From: a virus
Taxonomy: Duplodnaviria > Heunggongvirae > Uroviricota > Caudoviricetes
Direction: 5' to 3' (one strand)
Virus record (IMG/VR): IMGVR_UViG_2740892427_000003
DNA length: 53,833 nucleotides
In this document: piece after piece, positions 5,133-49,836 of the stretch
How the letters are laid out: each line of letters opens with the position of its first letter
Numbering within the stretch: the first letter of the stretch is position 1
Notes under the pieces: model-generated
Databases searched by the model: none
What the model was told of the DNA's origin: nothing
What the model saw: the letters and a program-made list of their open reading frames with translations, nothing else
Made by a program: the position numbers and the translations under genes

Positions 5133-8100
5133 TCACGAAATACTGATACCCGCCGTGGACTTCTTCATCACGACAACCAGCAGATCGCTGATACTCGCTG
5201 TCGGGTACCATCCATTCACCAGCCAGGCAGACACAGAAAACTCCAGCGTCATATGCCCCCTTCCTGCAGGCATATCAATCACCCCTGAATACACCTGAGA
5301 CTCAGCCAGCGCCGTCCTTTCAAAAAGCACCCTGCCGTTACATTTCACCATCAGCCGGCATGATGAATAAATATCGTTATGCTCTCTCTCATGTTTAGCG
5401 CCGCTGAAAGCCACTGCCGGGATCACAATTTGCCGGTCAAAAGGCTGATCGTCATAAATCCTGACGGTAATGGTCCCCGATGGCCACCGCTCCGGTGCGC
5501 GGGAGTCCCGCGGGAAAGCCTTCCCCACGGTTTTAACAATATCGCCTTCAATCTGGTTGGCAGACAGTTTTCCAAGTATCCGGCAGTTCTGGTTAATGGT
5601 CACATTATTGAGCGTGCCCGAGTTCGCACTGATATGTCCGCTGATGTCCGCATTGCGGGCCGTCAGCCTGCCCTCCGGCGTCAGGGAGAACGTCGGGGGA
5701 TTGCCGGACGAGGTGATGCTCACTGCAAACAGTCGCTTCAGGAACACATCGTTCATGAACAGCTGATTCCCCTGCGCCACAAACAGCGGCGTGGTGTTGC
5801 CGTTCTCCGGGTTAATCATCGCGATACGGTCCGCCTGCAGCAGAATATTGCTCAGGGGCTGGCCATCAGCATCCTCAATCCCCGCACCAATACCGGCAAC
5901 ATACGGAATGCCGTTTTTCGTTTTCTGCACCTTCAGCATGTACAGCGCAGCCAGGTCGTGATTTGTGCCTGTCTGCACCCGCTGTATCTGCTGTATGGTG
6001 GCACTCTGGTCTTCCAGGGTTTTACTGACCGTCTGCGTGATTTCATTGCGGGTTTCGGTGATGGTGGTCTTCATCTCCGCCATCTCATCATCAAGCTGGC
6101 TGTTATCAATCAGCTCCCACATCCCCTGTGCCAGATGCAGTTTTCCTATCTTTTCCCGAAACAGCCCCAGATACCCTTCTGCATCATTGCTGGCCCGGCC
6201 ACTGGCTTCCACAAACGCAGATTTCCCCACCAGGTTGACGCTGCGCACATAAAACCAGAAATCCTTCCCCGGCTTAATGTGCGGGCCGGAGACACTCCAC
6301 TGGCTGCCTGTCCCCAGATAACGGGCAGAGGTTTCCACCTGAGATGTGTCTGCGATTTTTGCCTCCGAAAACCAGAATTCAAATTGTACCGTCGGGTCAT
6401 ACACCGTAAGATGCGGGACCGCCGTTATCTGATAATACCCCGGCGTCAGTTCAATGCTGGCCGGTGCTGCCGGTGCGTTAATCCGGAACGTGGTGGTGGC
6501 AGGTTCGCCCTGCTGGCCGTAGCTGTTTATCGCCCTGACCGTCAGGGTGTATTCCCCGGGCGGCAGGCCACTGAAACGGTGCTCCGTGTCGGCAGTGATA
6601 GCGCTGGTCACCAGGCGGCTGCTTTCACCACTGCCACTGGTCAGGCGCAGACTGAAGCGCACGCCCTTCACCACCCGCGGCGTGTCCCATTTCGCCAGCG
6701 CCAGATACTGGCCGTCTGAGGCACTCACCTCCACCGTGAGGTGCTGCACAGCCGGCGGGATGACGCTGTTCAGTGAACCGGAGAGCGGCTCAAAGGTGGC
6801 CCCGTTATCCACGATGGCTTCTTTTTCCGGCACATGCTGCACCGCCGTGATGGCAAAGGTGCCGTCCGTGTTTTCCCGGATGGAAACACAGCGGAACAGG
6901 CGACGACGCAGTGACGGCAGGGAGAGTCCCCACACACCGTATGTCTCCACGCCATCCGGCAGGACGCTGACCTGTATCCGGTCCGGGGCGGGGTGTGCGG
7001 TGATGTCCACGCGCACCGGCTTACCGCTGCCGTTAATCAGGTTCACCGTCGATGTCCCTGTCTCCGGCAGGGTCACCTCACGGTCCAGCGTCAGGGTACG
7101 GCTGGCGGCATCCATGGACAGGATACGTCCGCCGGTCAGGGTCCCGGCGTAGTCGTTATCACAGATTTCAATGATGTCACCGGGCGTGTGCCGCAGCCCC
7201 TGTGACCCGAGCATGAAATCCACCGTCTGCGTTTCCAGCAGTTCTGTCTTTATCACCCACAGTCCGGCACGGTGGGCCTGACCGCGGCTGGTACAGCCAA
7301 ACGCATCCATCTTCAGCAGATTGCGCCCGTAGCGCAGGATGGCGTCCGGGTCTTCCACCAGTTCAGTGGAAGTCTGCCAGCCGTTCTGCGGGTCGGTGTA
7401 ATTCACCTCCACCGCAGTGTGCCGGTCCTTCAGGGCACTGAAGCTGTAGCGGAACCCCACGCCGTTATCATCCACCACCACATCGCTGTTGGTGTACGGC
7501 CACACCACATCCGACGGACGGTCCTGAACGAACGTCAGCGTCTGGCCGTTCCATACCGGCATACAGCGCATCGCCGAGCAGAAATCCCCCAGAACATCCC
7601 AGACCTTACGCTGCTGTGACAGGTACGCATTGAAAGTCATCCGCGGCTCTGTGCCCCCGAAACCATCCGGGACCGTCTGGTCGCAGTACTGCCCGATGGC
7701 ATACAGTGCCCACTTGTCCACATCCGCGGCCCCCAGGCGTTTTCCCATGCCGTAGCGCGGGTGGGTCAGCATGTCCCACAGGCACCAGGCCGGGTTATTG
7801 CTGTATGCCGGTTTCAGACTGCCGTCCCAGATACCGCTGTAGGTGCGTTTTTCCGGGTCATAGTTTGACGGCACCTGAATGATGCGACCACGGATATGGT
7901 AGTTCACCGTCAGCTGCTGGCCACCAAACTGCTCCGCATCCACCTGCAGCCCCACAATCGCCGTGTTCGGGTAGCACTGTTTCACATCGATGATTTCGGT
8001 GTATGACGACCACAGCGTTCTGTTCTGCAGCTGGTCCGTGGTGCTGTCCGCCGTCTCCCTGACCATCCGGATGTTAAAGGGGCGCTCAGGGAGATTATTC

Positions 8101-42200: not shown

Positions 42201-42356
42201 TTACTTCTCAGATTCGTAGTCTACGAAGACAGCAACCTCCGTCTGGCCGGTTCGGATTCGTACCTCGCAGAGGTCTTTCCTCGTTACCAGTGCCGTCACA
42301 ACAACGGTAATACAGATGACGATCAGGGCGATTAACATCGCCTTTTGCTGCTTCAT
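42201..42356 (-). CDS. Hok/Gef-family type I toxin (hokC/gef-like)
   Basis: MKQQKAMLIALIVICITVVVTALVTRKDLCEVRIRTGQTEVAVFVDYESEK matches gef/hokC as recalled; ATG 42354-42356. Confidence 0.75.
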   Translation of the reverse strand: MKQQKAMLIALIVICITVVVTALVTRKDLCEVRIRTGQTEVAVFVDYESEK

Positions 42357-42646
42357 AGCCTGCTTCTCCTTGCCTTTCGGCACGTAAGAGGCTAACCTAC
42401 GTTTGTGAAGCATAGATTGGGCCTCAGATTAATGTTAAGCGTCCTGCAAGACGCGTAATGTTAACTGGGGCTTTTCTCTGTCTGCCTTACGGCGGCATGC
42501 CCGAGGCAGACAGCCTCAAGCACCCGCAGCAATTCTACTTAACTCTTCTTTCCCCGCAAACCGTTTTTATCCCCAGCGGCAAATCGAATACACCACCAGC
42601 GCCACCGCCATTGCAATACCAACATTTGAGAAGGCCTCAGGCCAGC

Positions 42647-48102: not shown

Positions 48103-48252
48103 CATGGATACGCTCAATCTTGGCAACAACGAATCTCTGGTATGCGGAGTATTCCCCAACCTAGACGGCACGTTTACCGCGATGACGTATACCAGAAGCA
48201 AAACGTTTAAAACTGAAGCTGGCGCGCGTCGCTGGTTAGCCAGAAACACTGA
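48103..48252 (+). CDS. small protein (49 aa), YdfA/YdaF-like (DUF1391)
   Basis: Not in the ORF track; GAGG 5 nt upstream of ATG; MDTLNLGNNESLVCGVFPNLDGTFTAMTYTRSKTFKTEAGARRWLARNTD. Confidence 0.45.
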
Positions 48253-48267
48253 CTGATGAGGTTGACG

Positions 48268-48669
48268 ATGGAATTTAAAGATTTACCAGTACCATTCCAG
48301 GAAATGGCAGCGAATATAGTTCGTTCTCAACTGGCGACTCTTGACCTGAGTACCGTAGAAAAAGAAACCATCGATAATATATCCGGTAACGTGCGTCGAA
48401 CCTTTATCGGGCTGTACGAAGAAAAGTGGCCATTCGGCGGACAACATTCGCCTGAAAACAAGAATCAAGCGAATGATGAGAAGCTGAAACACGTTATCGC
48501 CTTACTACTGGAAGATGCAAAACGTCTACAGCAACTGGAACCAAATGCAGGCACCGAAGCCCGCATCTGGATTGCCATAGAATCACTCAAATGTGAAAGC
48601 GATGATTATTTAAAAACCATAATTAAAACAACTCAGCTTTCTGAAGAGCTACCGAAGAAATTGCCATAA
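48268..48669 (+). CDS. hypothetical early-left protein (133 aa)
   Basis: GAGG 6 nt upstream of ATG at 48268; no recognised domain. Confidence 0.45.
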   Translation: MEFKDLPVPFQEMAANIVRSQLATLDLSTVEKETIDNISGNVRRTFIGLYEEKWPFGGQHSPENKNQANDEKLKHVIALLLEDAKRLQQLEPNAGTEARIWIAIESLKCESDDYLKTIIKTTQLSEELPKKLP

Positions 48670-49256
48670 TAATATGTTTTTCTTATAGAGGGGTTAGAAA
48701 TATGGGCCAGCATTATAGCAGGCACATATAACAGAAAGTATTTTAAATATTACGCCGTATCTTGTGATTGTTTTTTAATATATTCATACAAGCGCACAAG
48801 TTGTTTCAACTCTTCAAAGCACATAGCGGAATTTTCAATTTTTCCGGCGTTGATTAGTGCCAGAAGAGCCTAATGTGCGCAAGCATATGGATCAGTTACA
48901 GGGCTAATAATATCAACTTGCATATTATCCTCCATAGAGGTTCCGGGTTAATGATGGAGACCAACACGCTGTCACGTGTGGTCGTGCGCCGGACACGGAT
49001 AAGAATCCGGCACTGACAGTTTGCTGAAAGAACATATCCCTGAAAAGTCAGGGCATAACACGAAAGCGCACGGCGAGAATATAAGGCTTGTCGTTAAATT
49101 TAATTCGATCGTGCGCTTCCGGTTGTGGCAATCCGCGAAATGGCGCGGCGGTAAGTATGGCTGGGGCTTCCTCCATTGCTCCAGAAAATGCACCGGGTTG
49201 TGAGGTTGACCATGCGCCTGAGTGACAACACCGCCACAACAACCTCTGTTATCACT

Positions 49257-49296
49257 TTTCTGGTGATTCGGCGGAAATGGATATCCGCCATTTTTA
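49257..49296 (+). ncRNA. dicF: DicF-like sRNA candidate
   Basis: tttctggtgattcggcggaaatggatatccgccattttt: 5' UUUCUGGUGA as in the DicF seed as recalled, hairpin ggcgga/tccgcc plus U-run; about 170 bp upstream of dicB. Confidence 0.45.
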
Positions 49297-49462
49297 AAGT
49301 GTATTTTGTGATGCGGTGAATGCGGCTAAGCGCACGCGGAACAGTTAAAGCTAAAAACAGCGTTATGGGTGATTCTGTATTCCGGCGTTAATTGTTAACT
49401 GGTTAACGTCACCTGGAGGCACCAGGCACCACATCACAAAATTCATTGTTGAGGACGCGATA

Positions 49463-49651
49463 ATGGAAACGTCACTACCAAACGTTAATACGTCTGAAGG
49501 GTGTTTTAATATTGGTATTCTGCTCAGTAACCGGGAGTTTACTGAAGACGCCATCAGGATGAGAAAATATGAGCCTTATCTTCTCAATGATAATTCCATA
49601 CTCTCCAGAATTGCCCTTCTTAAACTTGGTATTTTCGGGGGGCAGCAGTGA
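49463..49651 (+). CDS. dicB: cell division inhibitor DicB
   Basis: METSLPNVNTSEGCFNIGILLSNREFTEDAIRMRK matches the DicB N-terminus as recalled. Confidence 0.8.
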   Translation: METSLPNVNTSEGCFNIGILLSNREFTEDAIRMRKYEPYLLNDNSILSRIALLKLGIFGGQQ

Positions 49652-49836
49652 CTTCTGCATTTGCACTGATGATGACGGTTTTTCTTATAACAGGTGAGCC
49701 ACAGAATGTGATTACCGGAATTTATGCCAGTAAAGAATCCTGCCATCAGGCAAGAGACGAGCAAAAAATTTCCGGTGAATGTCTCCCGTTAAACAAAGTA
49801 TCGCTGTACCTGAATAACGAAACACCGGCTGGATAA
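49648..49836 (+). CDS. ydfD: YdfD-like small protein
   Basis: MTSAFALMMTVFLITGEPQNVITG...ISGECLPLNKV matches Qin YdfD as recalled; 4-bp overlap with dicB. Confidence 0.65.
   Translation: MTSAFALMMTVFLITGEPQNVITGIYASKESCHQARDEQKISGECLPLNKVSLYLNNETPAG

Follow-up and report, generated by a model that had tools for sequence, protein, structure and literature searches.

The whole stretch of DNA analysed here, hereafter the window, is the 53,833-nucleotide IMG/VR record IMGVR_UViG_2740892427_000003 (Caudoviricetes), a lambdoid element with its integrase at the right end whose early-left operon is laid out like those of Qin and Sp14. On the + strand this operon comprises a putative repressor, a ydfA-like gene recognised by Pfam as DUF1391 (48104-48256), an ORF of 137 aa (48256-48669), about 790 nt of untranslated sequence, dicB, a ydfD-like gene, an exonuclease gene, xis and int; the early-right and late genes are encoded on the - strand, and a scan of the window did not locate the promoter of the early-left operon. 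The cell-division inhibitor gene dicB (49463-49651, +; Pfam DicB, 114.8 bits) encodes a protein with 58% identity to K-12 DicB and is annotated in the matching RefSeq record, and its stop is overlapped by the ydfD-like DUF1482 gene (49648-49836, +; Pfam, 52.7 bits), whose product is 45% identical to K-12 YdfD. Within the untranslated stretch 3' of the 48104-48669 genes lies the element studied here, at 49257-49295 (+), with 167 nt between the end of its T-run and the dicB ATG. An earlier note on this DNA, made from the sequence alone, had proposed a DicF-like sRNA candidate about 170 bp upstream of dicB and ydfD homologues, and both the spacing and the two gene assignments hold.

Over the 1 kb compared, the window and a prophage of STEC strain 2013C-3033 are 99.9% identical. 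Frameshifts in the portal and small terminase genes indicate that the window prophage is probably defective. Its cargo includes a hok/sok locus (42201-42525; sok, 117.7 bits), a second Hok/Gef gene (5442-5582), an ompC-like porin gene within the tail module (12172-13326), a PemK/MazF toxin gene near Q (38637-39038) and, at the left edge, an S6-family (SPATE-like) peptidase gene (1-277), all on the - strand. Two full-length copies of the STnc100 RNA (RF02076) are also found on this strand (34778-34990 and 35270-35476; 164.6 and 134.9 bits), between a DNA methyltransferase gene and a nanS-p-like SASA esterase gene and downstream of an Ile-Arg-Arg tRNA cluster (36598-36847) and the Q gene, with no stx gene there.

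The element is 39 nt long including its T-run and reads, in order, TTTCTGGTGATTC, GGCGGA, AATGGATA, TCCGCC, A and TTTTT. Its 13-nt 5' arm, or seed, UUUCUGGUGAUUC (49257-49269) is predicted to be single-stranded, and the first 10 nt are those of K-12 DicF nt 1-10. The arm is followed by a terminator hairpin (49270-49289) with a 6-bp stem, GGCGGA (49270-49275) against UCCGCC (49284-49289), and an 8-nt loop AAUGGAUA, and then by an A (49290; a C in the O157:H7 and K-12 copies) and five T residues (49291-49295). Folding of the element as RNA gave a lone hairpin (-11.1 kcal/mol) and left the 13-nt 5' arm unpaired, and a terminator consensus scan that is independent of the fold scored 49270-49289 plus the T-run as terminator-like, in agreement with the hairpin and U-run that the earlier note had described here. 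As modelled, the short allele thus has what defines an intrinsic terminator, a GC-rich hairpin with a U-run directly behind it on the transcribed strand; the A and U5 tail (49290-49295) is likely to form the 3' end of the terminated RNA, and the U5 is a possible Hfq-binding tail.

Alignment to K-12 Qin, with a mean column identity of 87% and long stretches of perfect identity to the left and right of the element, places it exactly on annotated dicF (NC_000913.3 1649382-1649434), and for hundreds of bases the flanking DNA is homologous to that of K-12 dicF, at about 90% identity. Given this position and these flanks, it is near certain from the alignment that the element is the dicF orthologue by position and descent, and a chance decamer is excluded. 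The candidate status proposed earlier is therefore upheld: the comparison with K-12 dicF that the earlier note had called for extends well past the decamer, and the outcome it had named as refuting, a resemblance limited to a chance decamer, is contradicted by the homologous flanks and the syntenic slot. The broader explanation to which the decamer belongs, that such a match lies beside an ordinary terminator or that the region is part of a small coding ORF, is hardly credible. Two ORFs that overlap the element (49176-49319, +, 47 aa; 49100-49291, -, 63 aa) do appear in a mechanical ORF list, but the long dicF alleles differ by 19 nt at this spot, so that any reading frame would shift, and neither ORF is annotated in the matching RefSeq records, where PGAP calls only a minus-strand hypothetical gene (49048-49176) ending about 80 nt upstream.

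Relative to K-12 DicF, the short allele has kept nt 1-10 (UUUCUGGUGA), the outer stem GGCGG/CCGCC and the U-run, has lost nt 11-12 (CG), and carries 10 unrelated nt (AAAUGGAUAU) where K-12 has a 27-nt interior (UAUCAGUUUUACUCCGUGACUGCUCUG). Counted alike with the T-run, it measures 39 nt against 58 nt, bearing out the earlier observation that it is shorter than K-12 DicF and differs in its mid-section. It thus resembles the Rfam reference DicF (RF00039, 53 nt in K-12) in its slot, flanks, first 10 nt, GGCGG/CCGCC stem, U5 and downstream dicB and ydfD, but is 19 nt shorter and lacks both the interior that pairs with ftsZ, pykA and manX and nt 11-12 of the xylR seed. Of the features by which DicF can be recognised, the early-left slot between ydfA/ydfC-type genes and dicB with homologous flanks is present, as is the DicF 5' end UUUCUGGUGA, the xylR seed, here shortened from position 11, and a Rho-independent terminator at the 3' end (6-bp GC-rich stem and U5). 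The interior and 3' sequence that is antisense to the ribosome-binding region of ftsZ, the function from which the family takes its name, is absent, and for RNase E, RNase III and Hfq it is the sequence context only that is conserved. The Rfam DicF model gave no match in the window at its gathering score (48 bits), none over 48900-49700 at E<=10, and none at E<=1 in the identical O157 short copy (locus L003), while controls in the same run scored 76.7 bits (K-12), 61.1 and 55 bits (class C, below), 43.5 bits (class F, from O157) and 29 bits (class D). Weak matches to other Rfam families, namely AgvB (anti-GcvB) over 49226-49295 (15.2 bits, E 4.9) and tsr32 and S15 over the region, were taken as chance; CACAACA is, however, the GcvB-target motif.

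The sequences that border the element correspond to those in which K-12 DicF is processed. The 5' flank (CTCTGTTATCACT-T; 49243-49256, +) is near-identical to K-12 and is the counterpart of the site where RNase E makes the K-12 DicF 5' end. On the other side, a 56-nt downstream block (49296-49351, +) that is conserved in every allele class matches the K-12 stretch in which RNase III generates the 3' end of a 72-nt DicF species; in K-12, DicF is processed by RNase E at the 5' end, and its 3' end comes from termination or RNase III (PMC9438474). DicF is Hfq-dependent. Single-sequence folds of the window and K-12 precursors yielded no one clear long-range stem as an RNase III site, and AAGCGCACG is present twice in the window precursor. 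Just 5' of the processing site, at 49226-49250 (+), the short-allele haplotype reads CCACAACAACC and K-12 reads CUGCAACGCCC.

The untranslated RNA on either side of the element has features of its own. The approximately 270 nt 5' of the element (48985-49256, +) are close to 90% identical to K-12 Qin, better conserved than the DicB (58%) and YdfD (45%) proteins, with a fold z-score of -3.1. This segment includes a hairpin CCCUGAAAAGUCAGGG (49038-49053, +) about 200 nt 5' of the dicF terminator, degenerate in the K-12 copy (CAGACC), which we take to resemble lambda boxB (GCCCUGAAAAAGGGC); if the hairpin is nut-like, read-through of the dicF terminator could be regulated. On the 3' side, the dicF-dicB spacer (49288-49495, +) gave an STnc100-like match (RF02076) of 34.2 bits, below the gathering threshold of 47, and the spacers of the K-12, O157 and IMG/VR loci give the same sub-threshold match at 29-41 bits, including those at loci L001 (2433-2642), L003 (4052-4270), L014, L085 and L086. 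A long-range helix joins GAUGCGGUG (49311-49319) to CACCACAUC (49428-49436) in the window and GAUGUGGUG to CACUGCAUC in K-12, and the spacer, as modelled, looks like a conserved structured RNA. The idea that it is a put-type antiterminator RNA was dropped, as the available text of the HK022 put paper offers no support for it.

A search with an 80-nt query centred on the element (>=90% identity, >=80% coverage) recovered the short allele in 442 of 5,426 complete E. coli genomes (8%), at 528 places, with coverage and identity of 100% in nearly all matches listed. For comparison, the K-12 type occurs in 3,973 of these genomes, class C in about 305 and class D in about 11. The exact 33-nt core is present in 29 IMG/VR contigs, and the one locus matched in a scan of genome contigs belongs to E. 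albertii, which carries the core with two substitutions. The short allele was absent from 50,697 sequenced phage records, among which long alleles are present (one annotated as DicF), suggesting that it may be confined to prophages, often defective ones. Its occurrence in 442 genomes, in 29 IMG/VR contigs, in E. albertii and on at least three flank haplotypes indicates that this is, by its sequence distribution, a maintained allele rather than a private lesion.

The distribution extends to the reference strains of enterohaemorrhagic E. coli (EHEC). Sakai, EDL933 and two 86-24 assemblies share, at 100% identity, a 1-kb O157:H7 segment that includes the short allele, and each of the listed O157:H7 genomes, including the three reference strains checked, has a copy. 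In Sakai the copy lies at 2707678-2707716 (L091 3322-3360) in prophage Sp14, between ECs_2767 and dicB (ECs_2768), and the RefSeq record has no RNA feature at these positions; Sp14 of O157:H7 also carries pchC (L121 22474-22788, -), espJ and tccP. Four Rfam-derived DicF copies, DicF_1 to DicF_4, have been reported for EDL933, with sequences in Additional file 8 (PMC5331693). All four are long forms of 52-56 nt, and the short allele is not among them: it shares with them a prophage location, the operon type and the strains, as a paralogue, but the Sp14 copy of Sakai falls outside the list. We infer that dicF1-4 of Melson & Kendall 2019 correspond to EDL933 DicF_1 to DicF_4. The short-allele sequence was not found in a sequence-string search of the literature library, the Hfq-bound sRNA tables of Tree et al. 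2014 have no entry at the Sakai locus, and the EDL933 ncRNA tables have none for the short allele. RefSeq PGAP annotates no dicF feature even at K-12-type copies, so that its silence is uninformative either way, but Rfam-based annotation and BLAST with K-12 dicF both miss the short allele. In the Rac-like prophage of O157:H7 strain F6321 (L085 1778-1979), matches to C4 antisense RNA (79.3 bits) and IsrK (63.5 bits) lie directly 3' of that prophage's DicF copy and 5' of a Rha-family gene and kilR.

Among the loci collected, which comprised dicB-linked loci (biased to DicB proteins like that of the window), O157 loci and EDL933 DicF_3, arms and interiors are joined in at least seven ways, making the dicF slot a mosaic within a common frame: a 5' arm, UUGG(C/U)GG, an interior, CC(G/A)CC, N and UUUUU, followed by the conserved downstream block. 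Class A has the arm UUUCUGGUGACGU and the K-12 interior; class C combines the K-12 interior with an arm unlike that of A; class F, from O157, has the arm UUUCUGGUGACGU with a different long hairpin interior; classes D, G and H join other arms to F-like interiors; and class B, the window element, has the arm UUUCUGGUGA, shortened after nt 10, and a minimal loop. Every one of the 12 alleles aligned keeps the five outer stem pairs (100% paired), class C by a compensatory exchange of one C-G for U-A. The decamer UUUCUGGUGA does not vary among classes A, B and F, whereas nt 11-13 vary. Classes C, D, F, G and H share the frame and downstream block with the short allele but have interiors of 24-30 nt, the minimal loop being found in the short allele only. 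The short allele also has the least stable hairpin of the series (-11.1 versus -15.8 to -20.3 kcal/mol), and its tail has 5 U only. By eye, the 3' arm of class B (GAUAUCCGCC) is closer to the D/F/G/H arm (GAUGUCCGCC) than to the K-12 arm (CUCUGCCGCC), a resemblance that hints that the short allele may be a deletion derivative of an F-like allele. A further allele, in O157:H7 strain ECP19-2498 (L086 1489-1544; NZ_CP066748.1 about 2981628-2981683), combines the K-12 arm with another interior, UUUCUGGUGACGUUUGGCGGCAUCUGUUUGCCCAUGAACUGAUGUCCGCCC; at 43.5 bits it is below the Rfam threshold, it is outside the EDL933 list of four, and it is probably also unannotated.

The interior that distinguishes the long alleles is where most of the established targets of DicF pair. 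Studies of DicF mutants and of compensatory changes assign ftsZ pairing to the DicF 3' region (DicF9 and DicF23; PMC5069750 section 8); they show that pykA pairs where DicF23 is mutated, manX with the 3' end (DicF20) and xylR with the 5' end (DicF3 and DicF11) (PMC5069750 sections 8-10; PMC5861419). The earlier description of the element as sharing the 5' seed of the ftsZ-pairing sRNA is therefore correct as to the seed, nt 1-10 being identical to K-12 DicF, and mistaken in associating it with ftsZ, as ftsZ pairs with the 3' region and the part retained is the xylR-type seed. Hybrids were predicted with 22-nt windows and shuffle controls, which replaced an unrestricted duplex prediction that had returned meaningless long, loop-ridden hybrids. 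For K-12 DicF these predictions recover the published pairing regions of ftsZ (DicF nt 32-53, -22.7 kcal/mol), pykA (nt 29-50, -23.0 kcal/mol), manX (nt 37-54, -29.5 kcal/mol) and xylR (nt 6-18, -20.4 kcal/mol). The short allele gave -13.6 kcal/mol with ftsZ (z +1.1 versus shuffled sRNAs), -14.6 kcal/mol with pykA (z 0.0) and -10.7 kcal/mol with manX (z +1.9), all at shuffle level, and at the validated xylR site the hybrid is halved, from -20.3 kcal/mol in K-12 to -10.1 kcal/mol, because two bases of the xylR seed are absent. An alternative xylR site at -30 to -9 (-19.2 kcal/mol; reached by 1 of 60 shuffles) was not counted, as the terminator hairpin would have to open. The suspicion that the target range may differ thus finds support in the predictions.

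As the pairing sites for ftsZ, pykA and manX lie in the absent interior, the short allele should not silence these genes. On the modelled hybrids it is quite probable that it is no longer an ftsZ antisense RNA, and we infer that control of pykA, manX and xylR is likewise lost or nearly lost. The opposite case, in which the short RNA still inhibits ftsZ and cell division through pairing beyond simple hybrid prediction, appeals to the general caveat that such predictions miss Hfq-assisted or structured interactions; it is very improbable, given that the best ftsZ hybrid of the short allele is weaker than 49 of 60 shuffles and that the DicF9 and DicF23 nucleotides needed for ftsZ control are in the 3' region (PMC5069750 section 8), which is absent here. 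The closest experimental parallel is the DicF9 mutant of Balasubramanian et al. 2016, in which ftsZ control is lost and the RNA 5' end is kept (PMC5069750 sections 8-9), but DicF9 carries substitutions and continues to repress xylR, whereas in the short allele two nucleotides of the xylR seed are absent and the predicted hybrid with xylR has half the strength.

When the prophage was searched for complements of the retained seed, the element itself was recovered and, beyond it, a single site with two mismatches, which is at chance level. Reviews describe DicF as activating pchA by pairing with the coding sequence at an anti-SD element (PMC7769764). In pchC, positions +98 to +105 (ACCAGAAA) are a perfect 8-nt complement of DicF nt 1-8, and in two of the four windows folded, +92 to +100 is predicted to pair with the SD region. 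Shuffled seeds equalled the seed hybrid (-13.2 kcal/mol) in 40 of 500 cases (8%) and shuffled targets in 14 of 500; taken alone the complement is not significant, and pchC is put forward as a hypothetical target of the short allele.

Conservation bears on whether the seed is retained for its own sake. When the window was compared with O157 Sp14, E. albertii and a third IMG/VR haplotype, the element was found on at least three flank haplotypes and was 95-100% identical among them, while the outer flanks fell to 47-88%; identity was 96-98% over the next 56 nt, 54-98% from -300 to -41, and 47-51% in the spacer beyond +95. Across 52 short-allele locus entries, some of them redundant, there are no variable sites from -14 to +16 and 12 from -43 to -15, and the remainder of the element varies only by two singletons and by A/C at position 34. 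The invariance of -14 to +16 is suggestive of selection on the processing site and seed. The same conservation could, however, stem from recent recombinational spread or hitch-hiking alongside the downstream block, itself strongly conserved, or it could reflect a requirement for no more than the processing site and terminator.

The main alternative is that the element is a decayed dicF remnant acting only in cis, as a terminator or attenuator that limits read-through into dicB-ydfD, with any released fragment targetless and the 5' decamer persisting only as RNase E or precursor-structure context. This we regard as a real possibility, if not a probable one. All of the retained parts are accounted for by terminator and processing-site needs, of the four validated target sites three are lost and xylR is left with half its hybrid energy, the short allele was found in none of the sequenced free phages, and the window prophage itself appears defective, with its frameshifted portal and small terminase genes. 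Against it, the 13-nt arm is dispensable for termination yet invariant on three flank haplotypes and in two species, the decamer is also invariant in long alleles, where it is a proven xylR seed (PMC5069750), and at 8% of genomes the allele is common.

The element is thus a common, unannotated short dicF allele without the ftsZ antisense module, and its best reading is as a natural dicF variant retaining the 5' seed alone. Taken as a whole, we lean slightly towards an account in which the RNA is made, control of ftsZ, pykA and manX is gone, any trans activity would act through the 13-nt seed, and the hairpin attenuates dicB; for the trans-acting part taken separately, confidence falls just short of even. 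By analogy with K-12 DicF, the operon transcript would terminate in part at the short-allele hairpin, and RNase E would cut at the conserved ...AUCAC/UUUU... site. RNase E prefers RN/WUU, and the cut may fall 1 nt 5' of that in K-12, where A-C/U-U-U would match this preference. The product expected on the K-12 model would be an RNA of about 36-39 nt comprising a 13-nt single-stranded seed, the terminator hairpin and a U-tail, which would amount to a minimal Hfq-type sRNA anatomy, with any activity in trans coming from UUUCUGGUGAUUC. In cis, the hairpin would attenuate transcription ahead of dicB, and DicB would be left as the sole division inhibitor of the operon. A bolder proposal, that DicF is a modular family in which 5' seeds and interior seed cassettes are shuffled between prophages and in which the 39-nt allele works with a regulon of its own, seems to us rather unlikely.

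DicF is a long-studied prophage sRNA tied to cell division, sugar metabolism and EHEC virulence, and the consequences of the short allele depend on which account of it is right. Should it be an attenuator only, the outcome would be an ordinary one, a decayed sRNA gene. If it is expressed, it would represent a natural separation of function, a DicF seed without ftsZ antisense activity, and an extra DicF-seed paralogue to be counted when the phenotypes of EHEC dicF deletions are read. If the family is modular, removing the four known dicF copies from EHEC would leave a DicF-seed RNA still being made, and the prophage with pchC, espJ and tccP would harbour a working but overlooked 39-nt member in Sakai, EDL933 and 86-24. 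The mosaic of the slot, with its seven or more combinations, provides a ready series on the evolution of phage sRNA seeds, and the main relevance of the short allele is to EHEC DicF genetics and to sRNA seed evolution.
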